From contig CAVVNQ010000004.1 of assembly GCA_963749705.1 (NCBI GenBank), positions 86,454-150,453 on the forward strand: a stretch of 64,000 nt of DNA, written 5' to 3'. The position numbers and the translations under genes are program-made. Numbering within the stretch: the first letter of the stretch is position 1; the number at the start of each line of letters is the position of its first letter. The notes beneath the pieces were generated by a model. It was not told the origin of the DNA. It saw nothing but the letters and a program-made list of their open reading frames with translations, and searched no databases. Shown piece by piece: positions 4,075 through 41,449 of the stretch. This DNA is from an uncultured Chloroflexia bacterium. GTDB lineage: Bacteria; Chloroflexota; Limnocylindria; Limnocylindrales; CSP1-4.

Positions 4075-4578
4075 ATGCTCGCCAAGCGGGATCGCCACGC
4101 CGCCATCCGCCGCCTCGTGGCGAGCCGTCCCATCGGCAGCCAGGGCGAGCTCGTCGCCGCGCTCTCCGCGCTCGGGTTCGAGGTCACCCAGGCGACGGTC
4201 AGCCGCGACATCGCGGAGCTCGGCCTGGCCAAGGTCATGCGCGGCGACCACGCCGCCTACGTCAACCCCGAGGATCTCGCGCCCGCGCAGCGTCCGCCGT
4301 CCGACGAGCGGCTGCGCCGGATCCTGGGCGACATCCCGGTCACCGTCGGGCGCAGCGGCCTGATCCTCGTCCTCACGGGCCAGCCCGGCACCGCCAACGT
4401 CATTGCCCAGGCGATCGACGAATCCACCCTCGCCGAGCAGGTCGGTACCGTCGCCGGGGACAACACGCTCATCGTCCTGTTCCCCGACGAGCCCGCCCTG
4501 GAGCGCTGGCTCGATCGGTTCCAAGCGATCCAGGCGCCGGTGGAGCCGGCGATCCCCACGGAGGCCATGTCCCGATGA
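4075..4578 (+). CDS. argR: Arginine repressor
   Basis: N-terminal winged-helix GELVAALSALGFEVTQATVSRDIAELGL and a C-terminal oligomerisation/arginine-binding domain. Confidence 0.85.
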   Translation: MLAKRDRHAAIRRLVASRPIGSQGELVAALSALGFEVTQATVSRDIAELGLAKVMRGDHAAYVNPEDLAPAQRPPSDERLRRILGDIPVTVGRSGLILVLTGQPGTANVIAQAIDESTLAEQVGTVAGDNTLIVLFPDEPALERWLDRFQAIQAPVEPAIPTEAMSR

Positions 4579-5870
4579 ACAAGGTCGTGCTTGCCTATTC
4601 CGGAGGCCTCGATACCTCCGTCGCCGTCGCCTGGCTCAAGGAACAGTACGGCGTCGAGGTGATCACCCTGACCGTCGACCTCGGTGGAGGCTCGATGCGC
4701 GAAGGGGTAGAGCGGCGCGCGATCAAGGCCGGCGCGTCGAAGGCGTACGTCGTCGACGCCCGCGAGACGTTCATCCAGCAGTACGCGTGGCGCGCGCTCC
4801 AGTCCGGGGCCGTCTACCAGGGCGCCTATCCCCTGGCGACCGCGCTCGCACGACCCCTGCTCGCGCAGCTCCTGGTCGAGGTTGCCCAGAAAGAGGGTGC
4901 CGACGCCGTCGCCCACGGGTGCACCGGCAAGGGCAACGACCAGGTTCGCTTCGACATCGCGGTCCACGCGCTCGACCCCGGGCTCGAGGTGATCGCGCCG
5001 ATGCGGGTGGGCATGGGCCTGTCGCGCGACCAGGAGATCGACTACGCGATCGAGCGCGGCATCGAGATCCCGATCACCAAGGCGTCTCCGTACTCGATCG
5101 ACGTCAACCTGTGGGGGCGCTCGTGCGAGACGGGCGTGCTCGAGGACCCGTGGGTGACCCCGCCGCCCGATGCGTACGAGTGGACCGTCGCGCCGGGCGA
5201 TGCGCCCGACCCGGTCGATCTCGTGATCGGGTTCGAGGGCGGAATCCCGGTGTCGATCGACGGCCAGCCAATGGGCTCGGTGGAGCTGGTCCAGCGGCTC
5301 CACGACGTCGGCGGCGCCCATGGCGTGGGCCGGATCGATCACGTCGAGGATCGCCTGGTGGGGATCAAGAGCCGCGAGATCTACGAGGCCCCGGCGGCCG
5401 TGATCCTGCACACGGCCCATCACGCGCTCGAAGGGCTCGTGCTGTCCAAGGAGCAGCTGCGGTTCAACCGCCTCGTCGCCGACGAGCTGTCGCAGATCAT
5501 CTACGACGGGCTGTGGTTCAGCGCCCTGTCGCGCGACCTCCGGACCTACGCGCTGTCCTCGCAACGGGTGGTCTCGGGTGACGTGCGGATGCGGCTGGAC
5601 CACGGGCGGGCGATCGTCGTCGGCCGGCGCTCCCCGCTCAGCCTGTACGACAAGAACCTCGCCACCTACGACGAGGGCGACGCCTTCGACCACGCGTCCG
5701 CGGTCGGGTTCATCGAGATCTTCGGGCTGCCGCTGCGGGTCGAGGCCGCGCGCCACGGCGCCGTGGGCAAGCACCACGGCGCGGCGTGGACGTGGACCGA
5801 GCCGTTGCTCGAGGGCCTGCCGACCAGCGTCACGGGCGACGCCGTGGCCGGCGAGACCGGCGGCCGCTGA
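4575..5870 (+). CDS. argG: Argininosuccinate synthase
   Basis: PP-loop AYSGGLDTS; strong overall ArgG similarity; ATGA overlap with argR. Confidence 0.9.
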   Translation: MNKVVLAYSGGLDTSVAVAWLKEQYGVEVITLTVDLGGGSMREGVERRAIKAGASKAYVVDARETFIQQYAWRALQSGAVYQGAYPLATALARPLLAQLLVEVAQKEGADAVAHGCTGKGNDQVRFDIAVHALDPGLEVIAPMRVGMGLSRDQEIDYAIERGIEIPITKASPYSIDVNLWGRSCETGVLEDPWVTPPPDAYEWTVAPGDAPDPVDLVIGFEGGIPVSIDGQPMGSVELVQRLHDVGGAHGVGRIDHVEDRLVGIKSREIYEAPAAVILHTAHHALEGLVLSKEQLRFNRLVADELSQIIYDGLWFSALSRDLRTYALSSQRVVSGDVRMRLDHGRAIVVGRRSPLSLYDKNLATYDEGDAFDHASAVGFIEIFGLPLRVEAARHGAVGKHHGAAWTWTEPLLEGLPTSVTGDAVAGETGGR

Positions 5871-5949: not shown

Positions 5950-7236
5950 GTGACCACCACGTCGGAATCGGGCACCGGCCGCGCCATGGGACGGCGCCGC
6001 CGTGCATCCGCGGGCACGGCCGCCGCGCCGCGCGTCGACCAGCTGGCGTTCCTCCACGAGTTCGCGCAGCTCGCCACGCAGGCTCGCGACTGGGACGAGC
6101 TGATGCGAACGCTGGTCGACCGGACGACGGTGGCCCTGGGCGTCGAGGTCTGCTCGTTCTACCTGCTCGACCGCGATGGGCGGCGGCTGACGCTCGCGGC
6201 GACCAACGGGCTCGACGTGGCCAAGGTCGGCCAGGTCACGCTGCGGCTGGGCGAGGGCATCACCGGCCGTGCCGCCGAGACGCGATTGCCGGTCACGTCG
6301 CGCGACGTGACCGCCGATCCGCGATTCAGCTGGGTGCGCGGCTTCGACAACGTCCAGCTGCACGGGATGCTGTCCGTCCCGCTGATCTGGAACGAGGCGG
6401 TGGTCGGGGTGCTCAACGTCCAGACCGCGGGCATCCGGGCGTTCACGCCCGACGAGGTCGAGTTCCTGTCGACGATCGCGGCCCTGCTGGCCGGCATCGT
6501 GGAGAAGGGCCGCCTGCAGGCCGAGGCGGAGGCGCAGCTCGACCGGCTGTCGCAGCTGGACGCGGCCCGGGCGGAGCTGCTCGCGGTCGTGACCCACGAG
6601 CTGCGCACGCCGCTGGCGGTGGTCCGCGCGTACGTCGACCTGCTTGCCGACGAGGCCACCGATGGCGAGGGCGGCAACCGGAACCTCGTCGAGACCTGGC
6701 GCGAGAGCGCCATCGACCAGGTCACGAGACTCGACCGGCTGGTGGACTCGATCCTCGCGTCGGTGCGCGGCGAGGGGCTGACCGGCCTGCTCCGCGACCC
6801 GTTCGACGTGGTCACGGCGATCGGCGCCACCGTGGGCAACCTGGCGCTGCTGCTCCGTACCCGCGCCGTCCGCTGGGACCCGCCCACCCACCCGGTCGTC
6901 GCCCGGGGCGACGAGGCCCGCTTCCGCCAGGTGCTCGAGCAGATCCTCGACAACGAGGCGAAGTACGCGCCGCCGGAGGTCGCGGTCTCGATCGGCGTGT
7001 GGCGCCACGACGACGAGGTGCAGGTCTACATCACCGACGATGGGCCGGGCGTCCCGATCAACGACTGGGAGGCCGTGTTCCAGCCGTACGTGCGCGTCGA
7101 TCGCCTGCGCGCGCGCGGATCGGGCATCGGGCTGTTCGCCGCCCGACGGCTGATGGAGGCGATGGGCGGCCGGGTCTGGATCGAGAAGAACGGCTACGGC
7201 GGGTCGCGGTTCGTGGTGTCGCTGCCCATCGCCTGA
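5950..7236 (+). CDS. GAF-domain sensor histidine kinase (orphan; no adjacent response regulator)
   Basis: N-terminal GAF-like region, H-box HELRTPL, and a C-terminal HATPase region with DDGPGVP and GSGIGL. Confidence 0.75.
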   Translation: MTTTSESGTGRAMGRRRRASAGTAAAPRVDQLAFLHEFAQLATQARDWDELMRTLVDRTTVALGVEVCSFYLLDRDGRRLTLAATNGLDVAKVGQVTLRLGEGITGRAAETRLPVTSRDVTADPRFSWVRGFDNVQLHGMLSVPLIWNEAVVGVLNVQTAGIRAFTPDEVEFLSTIAALLAGIVEKGRLQAEAEAQLDRLSQLDAARAELLAVVTHELRTPLAVVRAYVDLLADEATDGEGGNRNLVETWRESAIDQVTRLDRLVDSILASVRGEGLTGLLRDPFDVVTAIGATVGNLALLLRTRAVRWDPPTHPVVARGDEARFRQVLEQILDNEAKYAPPEVAVSIGVWRHDDEVQVYITDDGPGVPINDWEAVFQPYVRVDRLRARGSGIGLFAARRLMEAMGGRVWIEKNGYGGSRFVVSLPIA

Positions 7237-7272: not shown

Positions 7273-8383
7273 CTACCCGAGCGAGGTCACCACCAGCGAC
7301 TCGCGGGCGCGCAGGTGCGCGTAGCGCGGCTTGACGACCTCGCTGATCAGGCGCAGCCGCTCGTCGAACGCGACGAACGCGGACTTGAGCGCGTTGATCG
7401 TGAGCCATTCCATCTCGCCCAGCCCGATCCCGAACGCGGCGTCCAGCGCCTGAAACTCGGACGACAGCGAGACCCCGCTCATCAGCCGGTTGTCGGTGTT
7501 GACCGTCACCCGGAACCGGAGCCGGCGGAGCAGATCGAACGGGTGCTCCTCGATCGACGCCGCCGCGCCCGTGTGCACGTTCGAGGTCGGGCACATCTCG
7601 AGGGGCACGCGGCGGTCGCGGGCAAATGCCGCCAGCCGGCCCATCGAGACCGTCCCGTCCTCGTGGACGGTGATGTCGTCGACCATGCGGACGCCGTGCC
7701 CCAGTCGCTCGGCGCCGCACAGCTGGAGCGCCTCCCAGATCGACGGCAGCCCGAACGATTCACCGGCATGGATCGTGATGTGGAAGTTCTCGCGCCGGAC
7801 GTGCTCGAACGCGTCGAGGTGGCGCGTGGGCCGGTAGCCGGCCTCGGGCCCGGCGATGTCGAAGCCGACCACACCGGCATCGCGCCACCTCACCGCCAGC
7901 TCCGCGATCTCCATCGACCGCGCCGCCTGGCGCATGGCCGTGATCAGCGCGCGGACCACGATCGGCCGCCCGGCGGCCTCCGCGTTCGCCATGCCGACCC
8001 GGAAGCCCTCGAGGTTGGCCTCGACGACCTCGTCCAGGGTCAGGCCCTTCTCGACCGACAGCTCTGGCGCGTACCGGATCTCCGCATACACGACGCCGTC
8101 CGCGGCCAGGTCCTCGACGCACTCGGCGGACACGCGGACGATGGCATCGCGATCCTGGAGCACGCCGATCGTGTGCTGGAAGGTCTCGAGGTACAGCTCC
8201 AGCGACTTGCGGTCGGCGCCGCGGCGGAACCACGCCCCCAGCGCCTCCACGTCCTGCGTCGGCAGGTCGCGGTAGCCGTACTCGCGGGCGAGATCCACGA
8301 TCGTCGCGGGGCGAAGACCGCCGTCGAGGTGGTCGTGGAGCAGCGCCTTGGGCGCCTCGCGGATGGTGTCGAGCGTGAGCATG
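7273..8383 (-). CDS. add: Adenosine deaminase
   Basis: HDHLDGG metal-binding N-terminus and HAGE motif. The start is set at the ATG giving [22 protein letters not shown]; the longer ORF to 8565 adds an unconserved 61-aa extension. Confidence 0.85.
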
Positions 8384-8489
8384 GCGGCCTCCGGACGTTC
8401 GAGCGATCGTAGCGCGGCCGCAGGCAACCGGTAGGGCCGACGGAACCGGGTCCGGCGGCCGGACGGACGCCGGTGCGAGTCGGCACCGC

Positions 8490-8536
8490 CATCGGCCGCG
8501 AGCCGGGGACATCGGTCATTTGCCCGATGCGTCATC
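8490..8536. promoter_or_regulatory. Cluster of CATCGG / CCGATG half-sites (inverted-repeat candidate operator) upstream of LAL regulator 1
   Basis: CATCGG at 8490 and 8510, CCGATG at 8524, CATC at 8533; the same half-site forms an inverted repeat upstream of the second LAL gene (12295-12314). Confidence 0.3.
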
Positions 8537-8563
8537 TGGCTCCGGTCGTACACTCTGCAAACC

Positions 8564-11494
8564 ATGAGCCAGGTGCGTCCCCTGCTGAGCCCGATCCTGG
8601 TCGGTCGCGACGACCTGCTTGAGCTTGCGGAGCGCCGGCTCGCGGAGGCAGCCGATGGCCATGGTCAGCTGCTGCTCCTGGCCGGCGAGGCGGGCATCGG
8701 CAAGACCCGGTTGCTGGCGGCCATCCTGCGCAAGGCGGGCGGCGCGGGCTTCCGGATCTCGAAGGGCGATCTCGCCCCGCAGGACCGGCAGGTACCGCTG
8801 GCATCGATCCTCGACCTCGCCCGGACCATGCGCCGGCTGCCCGAGTTCGGCACGCTCGGCGACGACCTGCTGGAGATCCGCGGCGGGCAGGGCGGCGACA
8901 ACCTCGGCTCGCGGCGGCTGCTCGTCCGCGACATCGCCGAACGGATCATCACATCCGTCGAGGCGCCCACCGTCCTGGTGTTCGATGACCTCCAGTGGGC
9001 CGACGAGATCAGCCTCGAGGTGATCGGCGAGCTGGCGCGCATGGGCCGCGGCATGCCGCTCCTGCTCGTGGGCGCGTACCGTGCCGACGAGCTCCCGGCT
9101 GGTTCGTATCACCGTGAGTGGCGCGCCCGCCTGCTCAGCCAGCGACTGGCCGAGGAGGCACGGCTGAGCCCAATGACCTACGAACAGACGGCGCTGGTCA
9201 CGACGCTCATCCTGGGCACCGGCCTGCCGGCGCCCCGCGAGGTGGTCAAGGCGGTGTTCGAGCGGACGGACGGGATCCCGCTCCACATCGAGGAGCTCCT
9301 CGGCGCGCTCAGCGACGACGCCCGCCAGGATGGCCGTGCCATCCGCGAGGCCGTGGTCCCGGACACGATCGAGGACGCGATCCTCGCCCGCGCCGGACGA
9401 CTGTCGCCGGCGGCGCGCGAGGTCGCGCGGGCCGGCGCCGTGATCGGGCGCTGCTTCGTCCCGGAGGTCCTGGCGGGCGTCCTGGACCGGCCGCTGCATG
9501 AGCTCGACGCGCCCCTCGCCGAGCTCGTCGCCAGCTCGTTCCTGTATCCCTTCGACTTCCTCGACCGTGGCTATTACGACTTCCGCCACCAGCTGCTGCG
9601 CGACGCCCTGTACGAGAGCGTGCCGGCCGCCGACCTGCGACGGATGCACGCGCGGGCCGGGGAGTTCGGCGCGCAGCTTGCGGGCGCCTCGGAGGTCCAT
9701 GCATCCGTCCACTTCGAGCGAGCCGGCCTCAGGGCGCAGGCGTTCCGCGCCGCCCTCGCCGGCGCGCGCGCGGCCGGAGCGATGACGAGCCGGCGCGAGT
9801 CATTCGAGCTGTACGCCAGGGCCGCGGCGAACATCCCCGAGGATCTCCCGGCCCTCGAGCGCGCCGAGCTGTACGACGGCTACTTCGAGGCGGCCGCCGC
9901 GGTTGATGACGTCGCTGTGATGGTCGAGGCCGCCAGGCTGGCGCGCCGCTGGTATGTCGAGGCCGGCCTGCCGGCCGGCGCGGCGGCTGCGCTGCTCAAC
10001 GAGGCGGGCGTCGCGCGCCGGGACGTCCGGCCCGCGTCGGATCGCCTGCGACTGCTCGACCAGGCCGAATCGGAGCTCCGCGAGCTGCCGGAATCGGCCG
10101 AGCGGGCGTCGCTCATGTCCGACCTCCGCCTGTTCCAGGCCCTCGTCAGCCTTGACCGGGTCCAGCTCGACGAGGCCGCCTCGTTGATCGATGAGGCGCG
10201 ATCGCTGTGGCTCGCGTCGGGGAACACCGACACGCGCGGCATCGACTTCATCGCCGCGAGCGTGGACGTGCTGGCGGGGCAGGTCGACACCGGGCTCGCG
10301 ACCATGCTCCGGATCGCGCGCGAGGCGCGCGACCTGCGCATGGAGAGCACCGGTGTGACGGCGTACCGGTGGGCGGCCGCCGTCGCGATCCGGGTGATGG
10401 ACTATCCGAGCGCGGAGGTCGGGCTTCGGGAGGGCCTGCGCTACGCGGACGAGATCGAGCAGTCGTACTGTCGCCACGTGCTCGCGGCCACGTCGGCGCA
10501 CGTTGCCTGGGCGCAGGGGCGATGGGACGATACGATCCCGGCCGCCGAGATCGAGATCGTCGAACCCGGCAGCCGCCGCGGCACGCTGGGCTCGCGTGAC
10601 GCGCTCGGCTTCGTCGCGTTCGGTCGGGGGCAGGTGGATCGCGCCCGCGGCCTGTTCAACGCCTCGCTCGAGATCGGGCGCGCGACCGGCGAGGTCGAGC
10701 TGATCATGCCCGCGCTGTGGGGCATGGCCGAGACGGCGCTGGTGTCGGGCGAGCCGCAGGTCGCCATCGAGCGCTGCAGCGAGGCGCTGGAGCTGGCCGC
10801 CGCGACCGGCGAGCGGGCGCTGCTGATCCCGTTCCTGGTCACCGGCGTGCGAGCGCACCTCGCCGCTCGCCGACCCGAGGCCGCCGAGCGCTGGTCCGAC
10901 CAGGTGCGGCCGATGCTCGCCGGATGGGGGCGGCGCGCGCAACCCGCCATCGACAACGCTGAGGGGTTGATCCGCCTTGCGGCGGGATCGACCGTGGCCG
11001 CCCGCACCGCGCTCGAGGCCGCGGTCGACGGCTGGGACGCCCTGGCCCGGATCTGGGAAGCGACGTGGGCCCGCCTCGACCTCGCTGCCTGCCTCCTGCG
11101 GGCCAACCGCCAGGCGGAGGCGATCCCGCTCATGCGCGACATCAAGGCGCTCGCCGAGCGCCTTGACAGCCCGCCGCTGCTCGCCCGGGCCGCGGAGCTG
11201 ACCGACATCGCGCGCGGACGCGGCGGGGAGGAGGAACCGTGGCGGCCGCTGACGGCCCGGGAGTACGAGATCGCCCGGAGCGTCGCTGATGGCCTCACCA
11301 ATGGCGAGATCGCGGGCCGGCTGGGCCTGTCGCCCAAGACCGTCAGCGCCCACGTCGAGCACATCCTGACCAAGCTCGGTGCCAGCCGGCGCTCCGAGAT
11401 CGCCGCGTGGACCGTCGCGATCCGACCGGCGGCTGCCAGCGCCGCGGCACCGGCCACGTCGGTGACCGCGGCGGCAATCGGCGCCCGTCGCTGA
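8564..11494 (+). CDS. LuxR-family large ATP-binding transcriptional regulator (LAL/MalT-like), paralogue 1
   Basis: N-terminal Walker [15 protein letters not shown], long helical middle region, and a C-terminal Lux[48 protein letters not shown]. Confidence 0.8.
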
Positions 11495-11531
11495 CTCTCT
11501 GTCCGGCGGCAGGATCCCGCGGGCATGGAAC

Positions 11532-11566
11532 GGCCCCGGTCGCCCGCGACGGGAACGACCGGGGCC
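11532..11566. terminator. Hairpin between the convergent LAL-1 and small secreted protein genes (candidate bidirectional terminator)
   Basis: 11-bp perfect inverted repeat GGCCCCGGTCG ... CGACCGGGGCC with additional pairing inside the loop. Confidence 0.4.
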
Positions 11567-11587
11567 GGGGTGCCGGCGAAGTTGCGA

Positions 11588-11929
11588 CTACCCCTCGAAG
11601 GTGCTCAGGTTCGGATTGCAGGCGATGCCGGGGTTGAGCCCGATCAACGTGAGCTGATCGCGGACCGCCTTGGGGATCTGGCCCCACGACTGGGCGTGAC
11701 CCGGATCTCCCTTGGTTGCGACGGCCTTGAGCGTGGAGTCACTGTCATCGGTGTACCACTGGAGGTCCTCCTGGCCCGAATAGGCGCAGTCGGATCGACC
11801 GTGGACATCCTTCAGCTGGCCGTTGCCGGTGATCTCGCCGGCCATCGCGGTGCCGGCAACCATGCTGAGGGCAAGGGCGGCGGTCGCGGCGGCGATGCCG
11901 AGCCTCGATGCGGTTCGGGTGTGCGTCAT
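11588..11929 (-). CDS. Small secreted protein of unknown function (113 aa; Sec signal peptide; mature part about 83 aa with 2 Cys)
   Basis: N-terminus MTHTRTASRLGIAAATAALALSMVAGTAMA/GE is a canonical signal peptide; GGAGG ribosome-binding site 9 nt upstream of the ATG; no recognisable family. Confidence 0.55.
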   Translation of the reverse strand: MTHTRTASRLGIAAATAALALSMVAGTAMAGEITGNGQLKDVHGRSDCAYSGQEDLQWYTDDSDSTLKAVATKGDPGHAQSWGQIPKAVRDQLTLIGLNPGIACNPNLSTFEG

Positions 11930-11976
11930 TGAAATCGATCCTCCGTTGTCGTGGGAACTGTGTCGCGATCCAGGGT

Positions 11977-12225
11977 TCAGACCTCGACGCTGAGCTCGTA
12001 GACCTCGGGCGTGGGATGCCCCGCCTGCTCGTGGATCCGCATCACCGCCTCCTTCGAGGGGCCCGACGCGAGGCAGAACACCTTGCCCGCCTCGGGATCG
12101 AGCCACGCATGCTCGAAGTGCACGCCCTCCGTGTCCTCGATCGCGAGGTCGCGGTCGTGGGCCTCCTGGAGCTGCTCGCCGGTGACGCCGAAGAACCCTT
12201 CGTGCACATCCATGAACTTCGCCAT
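11977..12225 (-). CDS. DUF4242 / SCO4226-like small metal (nickel)-binding protein (82 aa)
   Basis: Starts MAKFMDVHEGF as DUF4242 proteins do; GGAGGTGG ribosome-binding site. The listed 170-aa ORF has an implausible Pro/Arg-rich N-terminal extension. Confidence 0.6.
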   Translation of the reverse strand: MAKFMDVHEGFFGVTGEQLQEAHDRDLAIEDTEGVHFEHAWLDPEAGKVFCLASGPSKEAVMRIHEQAGHPTPEVYELSVEV

Positions 12226-12294
12226 TTGCCACCTCCGGAATGTGGGACGCCGGTCGTACCCTGCCCCGAGACTGGCTGATCGCGGCGAGTCCGT

Positions 12295-12314
12295 CATCGG
12301 TCGATCTACCGATG
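12295..12314. promoter_or_regulatory. Inverted repeat CATCGGT-N6-ACCGATG in the divergent promoter region between DUF4242 and LAL regulator 2
   Basis: 7-bp perfect arms; located 36 nt upstream of the LAL-2 ATG. Confidence 0.35.
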
Positions 12315-12349
12315 AGGGGTCGCGAGATGCACGTAGACTCCACGGCGGG

Positions 12350-15322
12350 ATGGCGACGAACGAGCTCGTGATCTGCCCGGTCCTCGTGGGTCGCGACGAC
12401 CTGCTGGCGCTGGCGGGCCGACGCCTGCGTGAAGCTGCCGCGTCGCGCGGCGGGTTGCTGTGCCTCGCCGGTGAAGCCGGGATCGGCAAGACGCGGCTGG
12501 CCGGGGCAATCGAGCGACGCGCCGTGTCGGCGGGCTTCGTGATCGCGAGAGGGATCGCCTACCCGCGTGACCTCGAGGTGGCCGGTGGCGTGTTCATCGA
12601 CCTTGCGCGCTCCCTCGGCCGGATCCCCGGGCTCGACCGCGTCGGTGCGGCGCTGGGCGAGCTGCTCGGTGGGCCTGGCGACAGGGCGCCGACGGCGGGC
12701 GACGCGCATCGGCGGCGGCGCATCCTCATGCTGGACGTGGTCGATCTGCTCGCGGGTCTGCCGGCGCGGACGCCGGTGATGCTCACGCTCGAGGATCTCC
12801 ACTGGGCGGACGACCTGACGCTGGAGATCGTCGGGGCGCTCGCGCGACGGCTGCCGGAGCTGCCGCTCATGGTCCTCGCGACATACCGGAGCGACGAGCT
12901 GTACCCCCGCGTCCCGATGCGCGAGTGGCGCGCGCGGCTGCTGGCGGGGCGCCTCGCGGAGGAGACGCGCGTCAGCCGCCTGGATCGCGACGGGACGGCG
13001 TCCATGGCGACCCTGATCCTCGGAACCGGGCTGCCCGCGCCGCGAGACCTGGTGATGTCGATCCACGAGCGCTCCGACGGCGTGCCACTGCACGTCGAGG
13101 AGCTCCTCGCGGTGGTGCGGGCGGCGGGTCCGGAAGCGATCGCGTCGACGGTGGTCCCGGAAACGCTCGACGAGGCCATCCTGCTGCGAGCGGGGCGACT
13201 CTCCGTCCGGGCGCGCCGGGTGGCCGATGCCGCCGCCGTCATCGGCCGGTCGTTCGACGTGTCCCTCCTGGCGGGCGTCGTCGACCGCTCCGCGGACCAG
13301 CTGTCCGCACCGCTCCGGGAGCTCGAGACCGCGTACTTCGTGGCCGAGACGGCCGATGCGGGTCGCCTCGACTTTCGGCACGCGCTGATCCGCGACGCGC
13401 TGTACCGGCAGGTGCCGGCGCATGTGCGCCGTCGCCTGCACGGCCGCGTCGCCGACGCCGCGGCGACGGATCCACGGTTCGATGCCGCCTTCCGGTCGAC
13501 CCACCTGGAGGAAGCCGGCCGCAGCGCCGAGGCCTTCGCGGCCGCGCTCGAGGGCGGGCGCCGCGCGGCCGCCATGTCCGCCCATCGCGAGGCGCTCGAG
13601 CTGCTCGAACGGGCGCGGCGGACCGCACCACCCGAGCTGCAGCCCCAGGACCGCGCTTCGATGCTCGCCGCGCTCGCCGACGAGGCGGCCGCCACCGACG
13701 CCAACGACAACGCCGACCGGAGCTACGAGGAGGCGATCGAGCTGCTGCGCCGCGTCGGTGATCTCCGGGCGGCATCGGCGCTCGTGCCGCGCCAGGTTGC
13801 CGTCCGACACCTGCTGGGCGACGACCTGCAGGCCCGGTCCGAGCGACTGGAGGCCGCGGTCCGCGCACTGGAGGCGGTCCCCGACGACACCGCGACACGA
13901 GCCGTGCGCGCCAGGCTGCTGTCGGGGCTGGCGGCAGCCAACATGCTCGATCGCCGGCTCGAGACCGCGATCGCGTACGGCGAGGCGGGCCGTGAGCTGG
14001 CCATCGAGACCGGCGAGCAGGGCATCGAGCTGGACGTTGCCGCGACCGTCGGCTCGTGCCTGGTGTTCGCGGGGCGCATGGACGAGGGCTGGGCGCTGCT
14101 CGAGCGCGCGGTCGCCGAGGCCCGATCGGCGCACCGCGAGTCGGAGGCTGCCCGCGCGTACCGGATGATCGGCTCGTGCGCCTCGGTGCTCGTCGAGTAC
14201 GGGCGCGCCGAACGCTGGCTCGGCGAGGGCATCGAGCTGGCAGAGCGCGTCGAGCTCTGGAACCATCGCCATTACATGGCCGCGCACCTCGGTCACGTAC
14301 GCTGGGCGAGTGGCGCCTGGCCCGACGCCGAGCGGCTCGCGGCACATGCCCTTGCCGACGGCCGGGGCGGCATCACGACCCGGATCACCGCGCTCCACGT
14401 GCTCGGCTACGTCAATGTCGGCCGCGGGCATCTCGACGATGCGCAACGGATCCTCACGGAGGCGCTCGAGCTGGGCGAGCAGATGGCCGAGCTCCAGCGG
14501 ATCTCGCCCGCCGTGTGGGGCCTGGCCGAGGCGGCGCTGCTCGCCGGCGATCCGCATCGCGCCATCGCCTGGTGCGAGAAGGGCGAAGCGGCCTCCGACG
14601 CCGTGGCCGACGCTGCCTACCTGTTCCCGTTCCTCGTCACGGGCGCGCGAGCGCATCTGGCGGCCGGCGATCCGGCCGCGGCGGCTGCCTGGACCACCCG
14701 GGTGTCCGCCGCCGTGGCCCATCGCGGGATCCCCGGCACCATGCCGGCGATCGACCATGCGCGCGGCCTGGTGGAGCTCGCAAACGGCGCCACGGGACGC
14801 GCACGTGCGTCGCTGGACATCGCGCGCCGCCAGTGGCACGAGCATCAACGGACGTGGGAGGGATCCTGGGCGGCGCTCGACCTCGCGGTCGCGCTCGCGC
14901 GCTCCAACCTGCCGGGCGAGGCGCGGCGGATCGCGCTCGAGGCGGAGGGGATCGCCGACCAGCTGGACTCGGCGCCGCTGCGGCGGGCCGCAGCGGACCT
15001 GCTGGCCAGGCTGCGGTCACGCACCGGTCCGGTGCCTCCGTGGGCGCCGCTCACGGCACGCGAGTACACGGTCGCCCGGCTCATCGCGGCGGGGTCGACC
15101 AACAGCGAGATCGCGCTGGAGCTGGGCATCGCCCCGCGCACGGCCACGTCGCACGTGGAGCACATCCTTGCCAAACTGGGGTTCACACGGCGGGCGGAGG
15201 TGGCGGCGTGGGTCGGCCGCACGGCGGCCGCACCGTCGATGCCCAGCGAGAACGCCGGTGGCGGTGCGTCGATGTCGCTCGTCGACACGCCACGCCGCCG
15301 GGCGACAGGGAGCGATCGATGA
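12350..15322 (+). CDS. LuxR-family large ATP-binding transcriptional regulator (LAL), paralogue 2
   Basis: Same architecture and roughly 45% identity to the 8564 gene ([13 protein letters not shown] Walker A; C-terminal LTAREYTVARLIAAGSTNSEIALELGIAPRTATSHVEHILAKLG). Start chosen at the ATG giving MATNELVICPVLVGRDD. Confidence 0.8.
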   Translation: MATNELVICPVLVGRDDLLALAGRRLREAAASRGGLLCLAGEAGIGKTRLAGAIERRAVSAGFVIARGIAYPRDLEVAGGVFIDLARSLGRIPGLDRVGAALGELLGGPGDRAPTAGDAHRRRRILMLDVVDLLAGLPARTPVMLTLEDLHWADDLTLEIVGALARRLPELPLMVLATYRSDELYPRVPMREWRARLLAGRLAEETRVSRLDRDGTASMATLILGTGLPAPRDLVMSIHERSDGVPLHVEELLAVVRAAGPEAIASTVVPETLDEAILLRAGRLSVRARRVADAAAVIGRSFDVSLLAGVVDRSADQLSAPLRELETAYFVAETADAGRLDFRHALIRDALYRQVPAHVRRRLHGRVADAAATDPRFDAAFRSTHLEEAGRSAEAFAAALEGGRRAAAMSAHREALELLERARRTAPPELQPQDRASMLAALADEAAATDANDNADRSYEEAIELLRRVGDLRAASALVPRQVAVRHLLGDDLQARSERLEAAVRALEAVPDDTATRAVRARLLSGLAAANMLDRRLETAIAYGEAGRELAIETGEQGIELDVAATVGSCLVFAGRMDEGWALLERAVAEARSAHRESEAARAYRMIGSCASVLVEYGRAERWLGEGIELAERVELWNHRHYMAAHLGHVRWASGAWPDAERLAAHALADGRGGITTRITALHVLGYVNVGRGHLDDAQRILTEALELGEQMAELQRISPAVWGLAEAALLAGDPHRAIAWCEKGEAASDAVADAAYLFPFLVTGARAHLAAGDPAAAAAWTTRVSAAVAHRGIPGTMPAIDHARGLVELANGATGRARASLDIARRQWHEHQRTWEGSWAALDLAVALARSNLPGEARRIALEAEGIADQLDSAPLRRAAADLLARLRSRTGPVPPWAPLTAREYTVARLIAAGSTNSEIALELGIAPRTATSHVEHILAKLGFTRRAEVAAWVGRTAAAPSMPSENAGGGASMSLVDTPRRRATGSDR

Positions 15323-16221
15323 CGAGCCAATGGACCGGATCCTCGGGCGGCGTGGACTGGGTGCTGCGGCTCGACCGCGACCGGCTGCTGCCGGGGCGCC
15401 TCGTGGGCGGGCATGTGACGGTGGCCGCGCGGCGCGCGGTGGAGGCTCGCGGGCTGGTCGTGACGCTGCGCGGCGAGGAGCACTGGAAGTACCACGTCAC
15501 GACGACGGACAGCGAGGGCCACAGCCACACGGAGACCCGCACCGGGCACCAGGACCAGCCGCGCGTCCCGGTGCTCGCGGTGGCGCCCATCCGGCTCGCC
15601 GCGGGGGAGACCCGCGAGCTCGACATCCAGATCCCCGTCCCGGGTCTCGGCCCGGCCACGCTCGAAGCCGACGTCGCGGGCGTCTCCTGGGCCGTCGAGG
15701 CCAAGCTGGACATCGAGGGCGGACGCGACAGCTCGATCGAGGTGCCGGTGCGCATCCTCCAGCCGACCGCGCTGCTGCGCGCCGGCGTGGTCCACGTGGG
15801 CGAGTTCGCCCTGTTCGAGGCAGCGGACGCGCAGGCAGGCGGCGTCACCGGCTCCATTCGCATCGACCCCGTCCCCCTGGTCCCGGGGGAGCCGTTCCGC
15901 GGCCAGCTCTCGCTGCGGCCTTCGTCGCCGATGCGACTCCAGGAGATCCGGATGGAGCTCCGGGTGAGGGTCGAATCCACCGTCTCCGGCGGGTTCGACC
16001 AGACGCTCGTGCCCTGGTCGGCCGTCGTGGCACCCGCGATGGAGCTGGCGTCGGACCAGGTGGTCGAGGTCGCGGGGACCGTGCCGGATGTTGCCCTGCC
16101 CACGATCGAGCTGCCCCACGGGCGCGCCGCCGCCGAGCTGCACGTGATCCTCGCGCGTGCCTGGGCGCGCGATCCACACCTCGTGCGGGACCTGGCGATC
16201 GCGACCACACGGGAGCTCTGA
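15319..16221 (+). CDS. Spo0M-like / arrestin-fold protein (300 aa)
   Basis: Two beta-sandwich-like halves with a Spo0M-type N-terminus (GHVTVAARRAVEARGLVVTLRGEE; compare Spo0M GTVHVKGGKVAQDI); the ATG overlaps the LAL-2 stop (ATGA). Confidence 0.45.
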   Translation: MTSQWTGSSGGVDWVLRLDRDRLLPGRLVGGHVTVAARRAVEARGLVVTLRGEEHWKYHVTTTDSEGHSHTETRTGHQDQPRVPVLAVAPIRLAAGETRELDIQIPVPGLGPATLEADVAGVSWAVEAKLDIEGGRDSSIEVPVRILQPTALLRAGVVHVGEFALFEAADAQAGGVTGSIRIDPVPLVPGEPFRGQLSLRPSSPMRLQEIRMELRVRVESTVSGGFDQTLVPWSAVVAPAMELASDQVVEVAGTVPDVALPTIELPHGRAAAELHVILARAWARDPHLVRDLAIATTREL

Positions 16222-16264
16222 CGCCGGCGCCCGCTCCCCCGCGGATGCGGCGGACGGGTGCCCG

Positions 16265-17683
16265 TCAGCCCTCGAGCCGGGACCTCGCCTCCGCCAGCGC
16301 CGCGGCAACGCGCGCCGGCGCCGTCCCACCGGTGACATCCGCGCTCGCCAGGGCTCCTTCGATCGTCGTCGCGGCGCGGAGCTGGGCCACGATCCCCTTC
16401 TGGCGACGGAGCCCCCGCGCGACCGGATCGTCGCTGCCGTCGAGCGCCGACCTGAACGCCTCGTCGGGCAGTGCCGCGAGCGTCGCAACTCCCTCGGCCT
16501 CGGCGCCCCCGACGAGCCCCCCGACGATGTGGTGGGCGGCACGGAACGGGACCCCGCGCATGACCAGCGCGTCGGCAAGCGCGGTCGCCGTCGTGTAGCC
16601 CTCCTCCGCCGCGGCCTGCATTCGGGCCCGGTCGATGACGAGCGTCTCGATCAGCCCGGCCATCACCCCCAGCGACGCGTCGAGCGTCGACACGGCGGCG
16701 AACAGCGGCGGCTTGTCCTCCTGGAGGTCGCGCTGGTAGGCCAGCGGCAGCCCCTTGAGCAGCGTGAGCATGCCCGCCAGGGCGCCGATGACGCCGGCGG
16801 CGCGCCCGCGGACGAGCTCCGCCGGATCCGGGTTCTTCTTGTTGGGCATCATCGACGACCCGGTCGAGAACGCGTCGGCGACGTGGACGAACCCGAACCG
16901 GGGGTTGGACCACCAGGTGATCTCCTCGGCCAGGCGGCTGAGGTGGACCATCGCGAGGGCCACCGCTGCCAGCACCTCGACCACGAAGTCACGGTCGGAC
17001 ACGGCGTCGAGCGAGTTGGCCGTCACGCCGTCGAAGCCGAGCTCCGCGGCGGTGGTCTCGCGGTCGAGCGGGTATCCCGCGCCGGCCAGCGCACCGGCTC
17101 CCAGGGGCGAGACGTTGAGCCGGCGGCGGGCATCGAGGAGGCGGCCCCGGTCACGCTCGAGCATCTCGACGTAGGCCAGCAGGTGATGCGCGAGGAGCAC
17201 CGGCTGGGCGGGCTGGATGTGGGTCGTGCCGGGCAGCACGGCGTCGCCCTCGCGCTCGGCGAGGTCCACCAGCGCCTGCTCCAGGCCGACGATCCCCGCG
17301 ACGAGCCGGTCCACGGCACGCCGGGTCCACAGCCGGAGGTCGGTGGCGACCTGGTCGTTGCGCGAGCGTCCGGTATGCAGCTTGCCGCCCACGCTGCCGA
17401 CGCGCTCGGTGAGCAGCGTCTCCAGGTTCATGTGGACGTCCTCGAGGGCCGGATCCCAGGCGATGGCTCCAGCTTCGACGTCCTCGCGCAGCCCGACCAG
17501 CCCGCGCTCGAGGACCGCGACCTCGTCCTCGGTCAGCAGCCCGGCGCGCCCGAGCCCGCGGACGTGCGCGATCGAGCCGGCGATGTCGTCCAGCGCGAGC
17601 ACCGCATCGATCTCGATCGAGCGCGTGAACTCCGCCATCCGCGCGTCCGGCCCCTCGCCGAACCGACCGCCCCACAACTGCAT
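16265..17683 (-). CDS. argH: Argininosuccinate lyase
   Basis: MQLWGGRF N-terminus and fumarate-lyase signature region GSSMMPNKKNPD; start set at the ATG giving MQLWGG. Confidence 0.9.
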   Translation of the reverse strand: MQLWGGRFGEGPDARMAEFTRSIEIDAVLALDDIAGSIAHVRGLGRAGLLTEDEVAVLERGLVGLREDVEAGAIAWDPALEDVHMNLETLLTERVGSVGGKLHTGRSRNDQVATDLRLWTRRAVDRLVAGIVGLEQALVDLAEREGDAVLPGTTHIQPAQPVLLAHHLLAYVEMLERDRGRLLDARRRLNVSPLGAGALAGAGYPLDRETTAAELGFDGVTANSLDAVSDRDFVVEVLAAVALAMVHLSRLAEEITWWSNPRFGFVHVADAFSTGSSMMPNKKNPDPAELVRGRAAGVIGALAGMLTLLKGLPLAYQRDLQEDKPPLFAAVSTLDASLGVMAGLIETLVIDRARMQAAAEEGYTTATALADALVMRGVPFRAAHHIVGGLVGGAEAEGVATLAALPDEAFRSALDGSDDPVARGLRRQKGIVAQLRAATTIEGALASADVTGGTAPARVAAALAEARSRLEG

Positions 17684-17817: not shown

Positions 17818-17871
17818 AGGCTCAGCGCGCGGCCGACGGCGCGCGGCGAGGCTCAGCGCGCGGCCGACGGC
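17818..17871. repeat. 23-bp direct duplication (AGGCTCAGCGCGCGGCCGACGGC x2, 8-bp spacer) duplicating the 3' end of galT
   Basis: The second copy encodes the final VPSAAR* of galT; an identical copy lies immediately downstream of the stop. Confidence 0.6.
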
Positions 17872-18911
17872 ACCACGGCGCGCAGGCGCTCGGCGGCCTC
17901 CTCGGCCGTCAGGTCCCGCTGCGGCTCGGCGAGCAGCTCGTAGCCGACCATGAACTTGCGCACCGTGGCCCGCAGCAGCGGCGGGTAGAAGTGCGCGTGC
18001 ACCTGCCAGTGCCCGGTCTCCGCGCTGCCGAACGGCGCCTGGTGCCAGCCCATCGAGTACGGGAACTGGCGCCCGAACAGCGCGTCGTAGCGGCGGGTGA
18101 GGTCCCGCAGCGCCGCCGCCAGCGCGTCGCGGTCCTCGTCGCCGACGTCGGCCAGCCGGGATGCCGGGAAGCGCGGGATGAGCAGCGTCTCGAACGGCCA
18201 CGCGGCCCAGAACGGGACGACGGCCAGCCACGCCCCGTGGGCCGCGACGACGCGCGGTCCGTCACGCTCGGCAGCCGCGTAGTCCGCGAGCAGGCGTCGT
18301 CCGTGGTCGGCGAGGTATCGCGACTGGGACTCGTCCTCGCGGGTCGCCTCCACCGGAAGCGCGTCGCCCGACCAGATCTGGCCGTGCGGGTGCGGGTTGG
18401 ACGCGCCCATCGCCTCGCCCCGGTTCTCGAACACCTGGACCCACCGGTAGTCACGACCGAGCTCGGTCGTCTGCTCCGCCCAGACGTCGATGACGCCCCG
18501 GATCTCGGCCTCCGACATCCCCGCCAGGGTCAGGTCGTGACGCGGCGAGAAGCACACGACCCGGCACGTGCCACGCGTGCCCTGGGCACGGAACAGGCCG
18601 TCACCCAGGCGCACCGCCGACGTGTCCGGCCGGAGCGCGGCGAAGTCGTTGGTGAACACGAACGTGCGGTCGTAGGCCGGGTTGACCTCGCCGTTGACGC
18701 GGGTGTTGCCCGGACACAGGTAGCACTCCGGGTCGAATGCCGGCCGATGCTCGGGCGGCTCCGGCTCCTCGGCGCCCAGCCACGGCCGGAGCGTCCGTCC
18801 CGCGGAGACCAGCACCCATTCGCCGGTCAGGGCGTTGAAACGGCGGTGGGGCTCGTCATCGAGCGCCCCGAGCGCCTCGTCGTCCGGCCTCGCAGCCGGG
18901 TCAGTTGGCAC
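17853..18911 (-). CDS. galT: Galactose-1-phosphate uridylyltransferase
   Basis: HIT-like HPHGQIW active-site motif and zinc-site CYLCPGN; GTG start overlapping the restored stop of the upstream deoR-family gene. Confidence 0.85.
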
Positions 18912-19759
18912 GGATCGACACCCCCATGGCCGAAAGCTCGTCGTCCGCGACCACTACGGCATCGGCTTCCTCCTGGGCGCCTTCGCCGGCATCGACGACG
19001 ACGACCTCGGGGACCGCATCCCGGAGGATGCCCAGGGCCTCGTCCGTCCAGCCCACTGTCGGTAACCACGACATCCGCCTGGTCGAGACGCGCGATCGTC
19101 GCGATCCCGACGACCCCCCATTTCGCGTGATCCGCGACCACGATGAGCCGGCGGCTCGCGTCGATCAGCGCCCGGTCCGTCTCGGCCTCGCTCAGGTTGG
19201 GACACGTGAACCCGGCATGCGCATCCATCCCGTGGACGCCCATGAACGCGAGATCGAGGTGGACGGTACGAATCTGGGCGACGGCGAACGGCCCGACCAG
19301 CGCCTCCGAGCGGGTGCGTACGCCGCCGGTGAGGATCACCGTCTGGTCGCGCCGCCCGGTGCGGTGCAGCACGTCCGCGACCCGGATGGAGTTGGTCACG
19401 ATGGTCACGCCCGGCACCTCGGCGACCCTGCGCGCGAGCACGTGGGTGGTGGTCCCGGCCGAGATCGCGATCGACATGCCCGGCTCGACCAGCTCCACCG
19501 CGGCGGCGGCGATCGCCGACTTCTCTGCCTGCTGCAGCGAGGTCTTCGCGGTGAAGCCGGGCTCGTACGAGGCCAGCCCGGACAGCGCCGTCGCACCGCC
19601 GTGCACCTTCTCGAGCAGACCCTGCTCGTGGAGCACCTCGAGATCGCGACGAACCGTCATGTCGGAGACGTCGAGCTCCCGCGCGAGCTCGACCACGCGG
19701 ACCGCGCCCGACGCGCGGACGCGATCGAGGATGAGTGCCTGACGCTGGCGGGCGAGCAT
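18901..19759 (-). CDS. DeoR-family transcriptional regulator; apparent +1 frameshift near 19030-19050, so a possible pseudogene or sequencing error
   Basis: N-terminal [36 protein letters not shown] and sugar-binding domain up to VVVTDSGLD. The conserved C-terminus ([21 protein letters not shown]...SIRAN*) continues in a different frame and ends at a TGA overlapping the galT GTG. Confidence 0.7.
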
Positions 19760-19911
19760 CGCTCCGGCGTTTCCTCGAGGTCGTGTCGATCGCGCTGGGC
19801 CCGACGCTCCGGCCCGCGATCGACCGACCGGCGCATTATCATCTTGATCCCGGAAAGCACCTAAGTCAACGCACTCGCACAAAAAAAGTTGTTCGAATCC
19901 GCGCGAGTCTC

Positions 19912-19940
19912 TTGACATTGCGCAATCTGGTCGCAACAAT
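19912..19940. promoter_or_regulatory. Promoter/operator candidate in the deoR/sugar-ABC divergent region: TTGACA -35-like hexamer overlapping the 10-bp perfect palindrome ATTGCGCAAT
   Basis: AT-rich intergenic region; TTGACA at 19912-19917; palindrome at 19917-19926. Confidence 0.3.
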
Positions 19941-19998
19941 CCCACTTGTCGGCCCGGCCCGCATGTGCATCGCGGAAGGTCGCGGAGGAGGTTTCAGC

Positions 19999-21369
19999 AT
20001 GGCTGATCACGACGGCCACCTTTCCGTCACGCGCCGCCAGGTGCTCAAGGGAGGCGCTGCTGTCGCGGCGCTGGGCGGAGTCTCCGCCTTCCTCGCGGCC
20101 TGCGGCTCCGCGGGCGCGACCACGGCGCCCCCGGCCTCGTCAACCGCACCGGCTGCGTCTGCTGCCCCGCCCGAGTCCATGGCCCCGGTCACGGGCAGCC
20201 TGACGTTCGGGTCGAACTACTCCGACCAGGTCCCCAAGGACGCGATGCAGGCCGTCGTCGACGCCTTCACCGCGAAGACGAGCATCACCGTCAACGTCAA
20301 CACGGTCGAGCACGGCAAGTTCCAGGACACGATCAACGCGTACCTGCAGGCGACACCGGACGATGCGTTCACCTGGTTCGCCGGCTACCGGATGCAGTTC
20401 TTCGCCGCCCAGGGCCTGGCCCTCGATATCAGCGACGTCTGGAGTCAGGTCGGCTCGAACTTCACCGACCCCATCAAGGCCGCCTCGACCGGCGCCGACG
20501 GCAAGCAGTACTTCGTCCCGTTCTACAACTACCCGTGGGGCGTCGCGTACCGGAAGAGCTTCTTCACCGAGAAGGGCTACACGGTCCCCAAGACACTCAG
20601 CGAGTTCACGGCGCTTGGCGACAAGATGAAGGCCGATGGGCTCATCCCGCTCGCGTTCGGCGATAAGGACGGCTGGCCCGCGATGGGCACGTTCGACATC
20701 CTCAACATGCGGATGAACGGCTACGACTACCACATCGGGCTCATGGCCGGCAAGGAGAAGTGGACGGACGCGAAGACCAAGGCCGTGTTCCAGAAGTGGG
20801 CGGAGCTGCTCCCCTACTTCGATCCGCAACCGTTGGGCAAGACCTGGCAGGAGGCCTGCCAGGACATGCTCAGCAATAAGGCCGGCATGTACTTCCTCGG
20901 CACCTTCCTGGGCGAGCAGGCAACCGACCCGGCTGTCCATGACGATCTGGACATGTTCCCGTTCCCGGTCTTCGGGAACGAGTACGACAGCGAGATGGCG
21001 ATCGACGCCCCGATCGACGGGTTCATGGTGGCCGCGAAGGCGGTCAACGTGGACCAGGCGAAGGCGTTCCTGGAGTACCTGGCGACCGGCGAGGCCGAGG
21101 GCATCTTCCTCAAGTCGAGCCCCAACAACGTGTTTGTCGGCAAGGACGGCGACACGAGCACCTACACGGCGTGGCAGACGACGGCGGCTGGGATCCTCGC
21201 CGGATCCAACAAGCTCGCCCAGTTCATGGACCGGGACACCAGGCCGGACTTCGCGGGCGCGAACGGGATGCAGGGGTTCATCCAGAACTTCCTGGGCGAC
21301 CCGTCGCAGGACCTGGACAAGTTCCTGTCCGGCATCCAGGACTTCTACGACAGCCTGCCGCCGCAGTGA
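19999..21369 (+). CDS. Sugar ABC transporter substrate-binding lipoprotein (family 1 SBP; TAT signal)
   Basis: TRRQVLKG twin-arginine motif and LAACG lipobox; GGAGGAGG ribosome-binding site; extracellular solute-binding fold similarity. Confidence 0.8.
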   Translation: MADHDGHLSVTRRQVLKGGAAVAALGGVSAFLAACGSAGATTAPPASSTAPAASAAPPESMAPVTGSLTFGSNYSDQVPKDAMQAVVDAFTAKTSITVNVNTVEHGKFQDTINAYLQATPDDAFTWFAGYRMQFFAAQGLALDISDVWSQVGSNFTDPIKAASTGADGKQYFVPFYNYPWGVAYRKSFFTEKGYTVPKTLSEFTALGDKMKADGLIPLAFGDKDGWPAMGTFDILNMRMNGYDYHIGLMAGKEKWTDAKTKAVFQKWAELLPYFDPQPLGKTWQEACQDMLSNKAGMYFLGTFLGEQATDPAVHDDLDMFPFPVFGNEYDSEMAIDAPIDGFMVAAKAVNVDQAKAFLEYLATGEAEGIFLKSSPNNVFVGKDGDTSTYTAWQTTAAGILAGSNKLAQFMDRDTRPDFAGANGMQGFIQNFLGDPSQDLDKFLSGIQDFYDSLPPQ

Positions 21370-41446: not shown

Positions 41447-41449
41447 CCG

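Follow-up and report, generated by a model that had tools for sequence, protein, structure and literature searches.

Organization of the locus

We analyzed a 64,000-nucleotide stretch of DNA (the window) from an uncultured Chloroflexia bacterium of the order Limnocylindrales (GenBank assembly GCA_963749705.1, contig CAVVNQ010000004.1, positions 86,454 to 150,453 of the forward strand), and within it the slot between add and argH. Two genes for large LAL-type regulators of the LuxR family, LAL1 and LAL2, flank there a minus-strand pair of genes coding for a protein of the SCO4226 family and a small signal-peptide protein, and a gene for a Spo0M-like protein follows LAL2. Both regulator genes and the pair between them are preceded by the same 20-bp palindrome, which we propose to be the operator of a self-activating cassette. 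Candidatus (Ca.) Limnocylindria is an abundant, uncultured class of Chloroflexota from soil and fresh water, and to our knowledge almost nothing is known of its gene regulation; the operators of LAL regulators are, as far as we know, poorly defined in general.

The window has a G+C content of ~72%, so raw lists of open reading frames (ORFs) hold mostly spurious frames, and we set the genes by third-position G+C framing, translation, and scans against Pfam and NCBIfam (Table 1). Framing and domain scans bore out the two-gene minus-strand unit between two LAL genes that an earlier reading of the letters alone had described (the original prediction). LAL1 and the small gene converge, and a 12-bp inverted repeat between their 3′ ends is probably a bidirectional terminator hairpin, though it lacks a T-run. 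A scan of positions 8300-16400 for consensus promoters and terminators called nothing, this repeat included, and an Rfam scan of the same region returned no match.

Table 1. Genes and sequence features in and around the add-to-argH slot, in window coordinates; operators, -10-like hexamers, and the leader hairpin are predicted.
Feature	Position	Strand	Remarks
argG	4575-5870	+	G+C framing and domain scans
GAF-HisKA-HATPase kinase	5950-7236	+	between argG and add
adenosine deaminase (add)	7273-8370	-	between argG-side kinase and LAL1
operator O1	8510-8529		palindrome CATCGGTCATTTGCCCGATG; divergent add/LAL1 intergenic region
-10-like hexamer TACACT, LAL1 promoter	8549-8554	+	upstream-region alignment
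LAL1	8564-11494	+	976 aa; AAA_16, TPR_12, GerE
inverted repeat CGGCCCCGGTCG / CGACCGGGGCCG	11531-11567		perfect, 12 bp, 13-nt loop
small signal-peptide protein	11588-11929	-	113 aa; no Pfam or NCBIfam match
SCO4226-family protein	11977-12225	-	82 aa; PF14026 (formerly DUF4242), NF033706
leader hairpin region, SCO4226 5′ leader	12233-12262	-
-10-like hexamer CAGTCT, SCO4226-small promoter	12269-12274	-	alignment of 18 upstream regions
operator O2	12295-12314		palindrome CATCGGTCGATCTACCGATG; between SCO4226-like gene and LAL2
-10-like hexamer TAGACT, LAL2 promoter	12334-12339	+	upstream-region alignment
LAL2	12350-15322	+	990 aa; AAA_16, TPR_12, GerE
Spo0M-like (arrestin-like) protein	15319-16221	+	300 aa; PF07070
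argH	16265-17680	-	immediate right neighbor of the block
galT	17853-18911	-	beyond argH

Two anciently diverged LAL regulators

LAL1 and LAL2 are related over their full length, with 42% identity across 997 aligned columns. The original prediction of two paralogous ATPase-LuxR regulators of about 980 aa therefore stands as to relation and architecture, the identity being below the ~45% it had estimated. Both proteins carry the N-terminal P-loop NTPase of the LAL family (PF13191, AAA_16; E = 1.8e-18 for LAL1 and 2e-16 for LAL2), and their alignment displays the Walker A motif GEAGIGKT and the Walker B-like motif VLVFDD/MLTLED. They end in a LuxR/GerE helix-turn-helix (HTH) domain (PF00196; 58.9 and 51.8 bits, respectively, against a cutoff of 23.5), and their sizes lie within the range of the family (about 800-1100 aa, with a TPR or sensor region in the middle). 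TPR_12 is matched by residues 680-745 of LAL1 at 30.7 bits, for a cutoff of 30.1, and by residues 646-709 of LAL2 at 27.7 bits, just under it. In the PDB, the HTH domains match the DNA-binding domains of DevR and NarL, DevR/DosR being the closest solved structure. The recognition helix, (S/A)P(K/R)T(V/A)(S/T)(A/S)HVEHILAKLG, is nearly identical in both regulators and across the clades to which they belong.

To place these genes, relatives were collected with a scan of one genome per species using the small protein as query, which gave 75 loci, and with tblastn searches of the window proteins and direct context look-ups; individual loci are given L numbers. In a neighbor-joining tree, LAL1 and LAL2 fall in two old clades with 38-45% mutual identity, on which ground we rejected a local duplication as their origin. 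Orthologs of LAL1 occupy the same position in relatives at 54-84% identity. Those of LAL2 occupy the same slot at 66-84% identity in L080, L081 (70%), L082, and L083; in L206 the ortholog is at least 90% identical. The LAL2 clade is much the larger, a Limnocylindria family of hundreds of proteins at 53-57% identity.

A 20-bp palindrome precedes the LAL and SCO4226 genes

Inverted repeats of about 20 bp are known binding sites of LuxR-family dimers (PMC9628970). The consensus of 40 distinct sites from our loci is a perfect 20-bp palindrome, composed of the half-sites CATCGGTCGA and TCGACCGATG. When up to one mismatch is tolerated in its 14 core bases, exactly two copies are found in the 64-kb window, as against a mean of 0.04 matches in shuffled windows. 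O1, with one mismatch among the 14 core bases, is located 34 nt upstream of the LAL1 ATG, and O2, with none, 35 nt upstream of the LAL2 ATG. On the opposite strand, the SCO4226-like gene has its ATG 69 nt downstream of O2, so this operator is common to two divergent promoters, and it is the sole inverted repeat in this intergenic region.

Conservation was counted in the window and in L001-L085, loci that had been fetched without use of the motif. All 20 SCO4226-like genes have the site 67-79 nt upstream of their ATG, as do 18 of the 22 LAL genes at a distance of 32-55 nt. Particularly, sites equivalent to O1 are located 33-35 nt from the LAL1 orthologs of L001-L003, L009-L014, and L017, and from the LAL1-like gene of L083. 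The motif search extended over the fetched loci, ~1.3 Mb, and found no site with at most one mismatch in the 910 kb of loci that hold the small gene outside of this synteny. A metagenome-wide scan with a 16-base pattern gave mostly chance matches in unrelated DNA together with eight genuine LAL or SCO4226 promoters, and revealed no further members of the regulon.

Moreover, the trio of LAL gene, site, and SCO4226-like gene is present beyond the add-to-argH slot. In L084 it is located beside ffh and SDR genes and includes a LAL of the LAL2 clade, and in L139, L160, and L196 a gene of the LAL1 clade diverges from the SCO4226 gene with a single site common to the two. Both LAL clades are thus linked to the palindrome, and since the trio occurs with both of them in unrelated contexts, we take the cassette to be older than the split between the clades. 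No DNA-binding protein other than the LALs is a constant companion of the site. What was computed directly from these loci comprises the genes, the palindrome with its conservation and its fixed distances, and the finding that it goes together with LAL and SCO4226 genes in several contexts.

Two loci depart from the usual arrangement. In L014 (9849-10717) the order of the pair is reversed, with the small gene before SCO4226, and each gene has a palindrome of its own ahead of it, which supports both as targets. In L080 (1-2707) the LAL at the LAL1 position runs through several reading frames, and after it come a 126-aa ORF and an orphan palindrome (2690-2707).

Promoter geometry and transcription units

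Alignment of the upstream regions placed the palindrome in the same geometry at all three types of promoter, followed after 19-20 nt by a -10-like hexamer. The LAL1 hexamer begins 19 nt past O1 and ends 9 nt before the ATG; it is contained in CGTACACTC, which is kept in most of the 14 aligned loci, with few variants (TAGACT, CTACACTC) and a degenerate form in L050. The hexamer of LAL2 likewise begins 19 nt past O2 and ends 10 nt before the ATG, and is conserved as TAGACT or TACACT in the window, L080, L081, and L082. For the SCO4226-small promoter, the alignment of 18 upstream regions points to CAGTCT in the window and (G/C)A(T/C)NGT in relatives, 20 nt from O2; this is a weak hexamer assignment, and CAGTCT is best regarded as a putative promoter element.

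This spacing centers the palindrome near -41.5, in place of a -35 element. The vicinity of -41.5 is the classical position of class II activators and is used by LuxR-type proteins. A consensus scan found no canonical sigma-70 promoter (-35/-10) in the region, as is expected for activator-dependent promoters. The location of the palindrome suggests positive autoregulation of both LALs as well as activation of the SCO4226-small operon. These observations are congruent with the original prediction of a regulatory unit, as both LAL promoters and that of the SCO4226-small pair share a conserved palindrome in one geometry, which is what a dedicated LuxR-type regulator and its target operon would be expected to show.

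No Shine-Dalgarno sequence is present ahead of the LAL genes, and given that the hexamers end 9-10 nt from the start codons, the LAL mRNAs probably have no leader or almost none. The SCO4226 leader extends ~40 nt past its hexamer and contains a hairpin and a GGAGG Shine-Dalgarno sequence. In single-sequence folds, most of the 18 aligned leaders have a putative GC-rich hairpin between the predicted -10 and the Shine-Dalgarno sequence, and its stems vary yet stay complementary (GGGACG/CGTCCC in the window; GGCGCC/GGCGCC, GACGCC/GGCGTC, GAGCGC/GCGCTC, and CGACGGC/GCCGTCG elsewhere). The fold z-scores of these hairpins are not significant (mean -0.4), and RNAalifold, run on a MAFFT alignment of the leaders that was out of register, gave no consensus structure. 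The SCO4226 and small genes are separated by 47 nt without a hairpin, and the small gene has its own GGAGG Shine-Dalgarno sequence 10 nt upstream.

Candidate outputs of the cassette

The SCO4226-like protein belongs to its family by both profiles, scoring 138 bits with the equivalog model NF033706 (cutoff 125) and 77.2 bits with PF14026 (cutoff 28.5), and is 56% identical to SCO4226 of Streptomyces coelicolor (PDB 4OI3). It retains four of the nine published nickel ligands. In Ni-1 (Asp43, Ser46, His76), the only nickel site that its authors deemed conserved (PMC4186839), Asp43 is kept, Ser46 is replaced by Ala, and His76 by Tyr. H8, H23, H36, H65, H70, and C51, on the other hand, are invariant and also present in the S. 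coelicolor protein, so that the protein may function through a site other than the nickel sites of the crystal structure. The loss of nickel ligands alongside the retention of another His/Cys set calls into question the nickel-binding annotation of the family, and the affinity of the S. coelicolor protein for nickel is low (Kd about 10 uM; PMC4186839). A role of the outputs in metal or redox stress is at best a weak suggestion by analogy, as it draws only on the literature on the S. coelicolor protein, most of whose nickel ligands are absent here. In the window, a polyphosphate kinase gene (ppk) is found at 54766-57000, ~40 kb from the SCO4226-like gene; ppk, phoU, mtpA, and SCO4226 are neighbors in Streptomyces, and the distant ppk is probably a coincidence.

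The Spo0M-like gene follows LAL2 with an ATGA overlap of stop and start codons (15319-15322), as originally predicted. From this overlap, the gene is predicted to share the transcription unit of LAL2, which lies downstream of O2. L080, L083, and L206 likewise have a 4-nt overlap at this point, and L081 has a gap of 46 nt; in other relatives the gene is found without LAL2 or upstream of LAL1. The protein scores 29.2 bits with PF07070 (gathering threshold 23), through profile positions 17-132 of 213 only. Arrestin_N and Arrestin_C are matched weakly, below their cutoffs, and no PDB sequence is matched. We know of no report of translational coupling of Spo0M to a LAL regulator, and it is a speculation that the protein might modulate LAL2.

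The small protein starts with a Sec-type signal peptide of ~30 aa, ending in AMA before the GE of a mature part of 83 aa with two Cys residues. It has 1169 homologs, all unannotated. The family comprises 306 clusters at 50% identity, and nearly all of its members are stand-alone proteins of 90-125 aa. Within the family the signal peptide is variable and the mature part strongly conserved, with the core AGE(I/V)TGNG...SxCA(F/Y)SG...QSWGQ...PGxACNP and two near-invariant Cys. The number of homologs and clusters and the conservation of the mature part indicate that this small ORF is a real gene. A search of PDB sequences with the family profile gave chance-level matches only (E of at least 0.5).

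A predicted self-activating cassette and its alternatives

From this evidence we propose, with moderate confidence, a self-activating LAL cassette with a 20-bp operator, in which two sensors converge on one small operon. A LAL regulator of the STAND class would bind the palindrome as a dimer through its GerE-type HTH; bound near -41.5, where the palindrome stands in for the -35 element, it would activate its own near-leaderless gene and also the gene of a small cytoplasmic SCO4226-family protein, located close by or in divergent orientation. In the window, two anciently diverged LALs with near-identical recognition helices would each have such a promoter, LAL2 sharing its operator with the SCO4226-small operon. 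The result would be a positively autoregulated, two-sensor switch whose outputs are the SCO4226-like protein, the co-transcribed 83-aa secreted protein with its two Cys, and, via the LAL2 operon, the Spo0M-like protein. Binding of the palindrome by the LALs, activation as opposed to repression, and co-transcription of the genes are what we infer from gene arrangement and promoter layout. The portable core of the system is the LAL gene, the operator, and the SCO4226-like gene.

Several points weigh against this proposal. Four of the 22 LAL genes (those of L025, L050, and L085, and LAL1 of L081) have no recognizable site, and the paralog in L085 lacks the palindrome although its recognition helix is the same. 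Comparison of the recognition helices of LALs with and without the palindrome did not discriminate between them, and helix and site do not co-vary informatively. The connection of LAL and palindrome is one of guilt by association, and a regulator encoded elsewhere could bind the site. The placement at -41.5, and with it the preference for activation over repression, would stand or fall with the predicted -10 hexamers. As to the outputs, His76 is Tyr in all 26 Limnocylindria homologs of SCO4226, in which His3, His12, and His20 are also gone and Ser46 is not conserved. The small protein has no sequence or fold match in Pfam, NCBIfam, or the PDB, and its best AlphaFold model is only moderate (predicted local distance difference test score, pLDDT, 68).

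In a first alternative, the palindrome would be a real operator for a regulator encoded elsewhere, for example a metal- or phosphate-responsive repressor, and the LALs would simply be co-regulated neighbors. The indirect link between the LAL HTH and the site and the siteless paralog of L085 favor such an arrangement, and so does S. coelicolor SCO4226, which, without any LAL, is controlled by PhoP, beside phoU-phoRP (PMC4991794), and responds to nickel (PMC4186839). Nevertheless, we consider it unlikely, as all contexts open to examination have the site beside the start codon of a LAL gene, among them three unrelated neighborhoods and both LAL clades, and a perfect 20-bp palindrome suits a dimer of the GerE/LuxR type. 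The palindrome is presumably also unlike the published consensus sequences of the ARG, Nur, and NikR boxes.

A second alternative concerns the small protein. The original prediction held that the module controls a secreted factor, and it is right insofar as the small gene lies under the shared operator; the gene is not a conserved output, however, and is missing from intact cassettes of LAL, operator, and SCO4226 (L083, L084, L139, L160, and L196). The small protein is thus an accessory to the cassette and does not define its output. It could be imagined that this protein or a fragment of it is sensed by the TPR region of the LALs, in the manner of RRNPP systems, so that autoregulation would amount to autoinduction in a quorum-sensing-like loop. 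A secreted-protein gene beside TPR regulators that probably autoregulate, under the same operator here and with its own operator in L014, would fit such a loop. We find it quite improbable in view of the intact cassettes without the gene (L083, L084, L139, and L160) and of the family at large, which in 58 other loci outside of the syntenic clade has, by neighbor clustering, no recurrent neighbor (only generic ABC ATPase, TetR, AhpC-like, and luciferase-like genes appeared) and has LAL-type genes nearby in only ~4 (L038, L061, L072, and L075). Obligatory pairing of a pro-peptide gene with a TPR receptor gene, as in RRNPP systems, is not seen. Moreover, the conservation of the whole 83-aa mature region and its two Cys speaks for a folded protein rather than a short processed pheromone. 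In a related and equally doubtful version, the 83-aa protein would be an extracellular signal or ligand-capture protein autoinduced by the two LALs, and the SCO4226-like and Spo0M-like proteins would be intracellular partners or modulators of the STAND regulators; if true, it would be a protein-based loop for cell-cell or environment sensing in an uncultured soil class.

We also considered a recent insertion, in which an accessory module for the control of a secreted factor would have entered between argG and argH. The genes argG and argH are adjacent in many bacteria, the block separates them, and the content of the slot differs among relatives. As to location, the original prediction of a block between argG and an inverted argH was correct on the right side, where argH is the direct neighbor, but argG is two genes away, with the kinase and add intervening. 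Its further claim of an insertion into the arginine cluster did not survive the comparison with relatives, in which conserved synteny had been named beforehand as the finding that would speak against it. The closest of the 75 loci are metagenome-assembled genomes (MAGs) of Chloroflexota, from Ca. Limnocylindrales or Limnocylindria, and not from actinomycetes. About 15 Limnocylindrales MAGs at species level, along with several metagenome contigs, have the genes in the order argJ-argB-argR-argG, GAF kinase, (GyrI-like), add, LAL1, small, SCO4226, (Spo0M), argH, galT, and the add-to-argH slot is the same in ~20 relatives, down to ~54% LAL1 identity. G+C is 0.71-0.75 inside and outside the block, the window contains no tRNA gene, and no mobility gene (integrase or transposase) was found among the scanned genes of the block and its neighbors, so that the marks of a genomic island (absence in relatives, odd composition, and mobility genes or tRNAs at the borders) are lacking. 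Furthermore, the supposed secreted factor is dispensable, as its gene is absent from L082, L083, L084, and L160 and the pairing of LAL and SCO4226 persists. We thus regard a recent insertion as very improbable; the cassette is chromosomal and vertically inherited in Ca. Limnocylindria.

The differences in slot content are as follows. The full set of LAL1, small gene, SCO4226, LAL2, and Spo0M is found in the window, L081, and L206, and also in L080, where the LAL1 position is held by a frameshifted LAL only 45% identical to LAL1. The small gene is lacking in L083, LAL2 in L001, L002, and L017, and both LAL2 and Spo0M in L009-L013, L025, and L050; Spo0M is upstream of LAL1 in L003, and only a LAL2 ortholog lies between add and argH in L082. 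In L001, the closest of these slot variants (its small protein is 92% identical), the equivalent of window positions 12356-15258 (2903 bp) is missing, with a TGGCG microhomology at the junction (L001 9574-9578). Since L001 retains the LAL2 start codon and about the last 60 nt of the gene, upstream of Spo0M, we attribute the difference to a deletion in L001 and not to an insertion in the window. The argH gene of L001 is called as fragments, which may reflect a decaying locus or an assembly of lower quality.

Finally, that the palindrome is a nucleic-acid hairpin (a terminator, attenuator, repetitive extragenic palindromic (REP)-like or RNA stability element) is hardly credible, for although a perfect inverted repeat could form a stem-loop and this GC-rich region holds other hairpins, it is the identity of the bases that is conserved and not their pairing, the half-site mismatches being one-sided and uncompensated, a pattern more in keeping with a protein operator than with an RNA stem, and the element stands upstream of the predicted -10s at a fixed spacing, between divergent genes with no upstream transcript to terminate, and has no Rfam match.

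Significance and other features of the window

The proposed self-activating cassette does not overturn what is currently understood. It comes from a poorly studied phylum and, though well defined, is ordinary as a regulatory locus; a LAL/LuxR-type activator with an adjacent target operon is an arrangement already known. What it offers is an operator, CATCGGTCGATCGACCGATG, that is precise and testable, a defined promoter geometry, and a minimal portable cassette (LAL, operator, and SCO4226-like gene) that could be rebuilt in a heterologous host. It also draws attention to a widespread family of small secreted proteins without any annotation.

Elsewhere, the GAF-HisKA-HATPase kinase next to add is an orphan, without a response-regulator gene nearby, and holds the argG-to-add position in every syntenic relative. 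Between 19700 and 23400 the G+C content falls to ~65%; this region, upstream of lacZ (23391-26405) and a melibiase gene (26074-28665), codes for a sugar-binding component (substrate-binding protein, SBP) of an ABC transporter (19735-21369) and, by alignment to L001, probably for two permeases and a DeoR-type regulator. Its alignment to L001 at 90% identity indicates that it is native and not foreign. Positions 40047-43885, with an aldehyde dehydrogenase (41447-42910), an EutN/CcmL pentamer protein (43418-43885), and a 232-aa protein without a Pfam match (40047-40745), could be a small bacterial-microcompartment locus.

Comparison with known systems

LAL1 and LAL2 have the design of MalT and other LAL-type regulators, namely ~980 aa with an N-terminal STAND ATPase, a central TPR region, and a C-terminal GerE/LuxR HTH, and like them they probably activate an adjacent small operon. 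They are not orthologs of MalT, as the NCBIfam MalT model matches the HTH only, and their predicted operator is a 20-bp palindrome rather than the asymmetric MalT boxes. Unlike the known targets of these regulators, the one considered here is neither a sugar regulon nor a biosynthetic gene cluster, and its host belongs to the Chloroflexota.

In promoter layout the closest parallel is that of the class II activators LuxR, TraR, and DosR, which also combine a GerE-type HTH with a 20-bp inverted repeat near -41.5 that replaces the -35 element. The lux box is located at -42.5 in class II activation of the LuxR type. Those regulators are acyl-homoserine-lactone receptors or response regulators, whereas the LALs are STAND ATPases; the lux and DosR boxes are unrelated in sequence to our palindrome, and positive autoregulation is plausible here.

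As for the outputs, the protein encoded after LAL2 is linked to Spo0M of Bacillus subtilis and bacterial arrestin-like proteins by a score above the threshold of the Pfam Spo0M profile, with only a partial match. S. coelicolor SCO4226 (PDB 4OI3/4OI6) resembles its counterpart in length (82 aa) and in having the gene of a small cysteine-containing protein beside it. That neighbor is the metallothionein-like mtpA/SCO4227 (PMC2267785), whereas the small protein of the window is secreted, has only two Cys, and is not metallothionein-like. The context of the S. coelicolor gene, phoU-phoRP under PhoP control, is replaced in Ca. Limnocylindria by a LAL gene with its palindrome.

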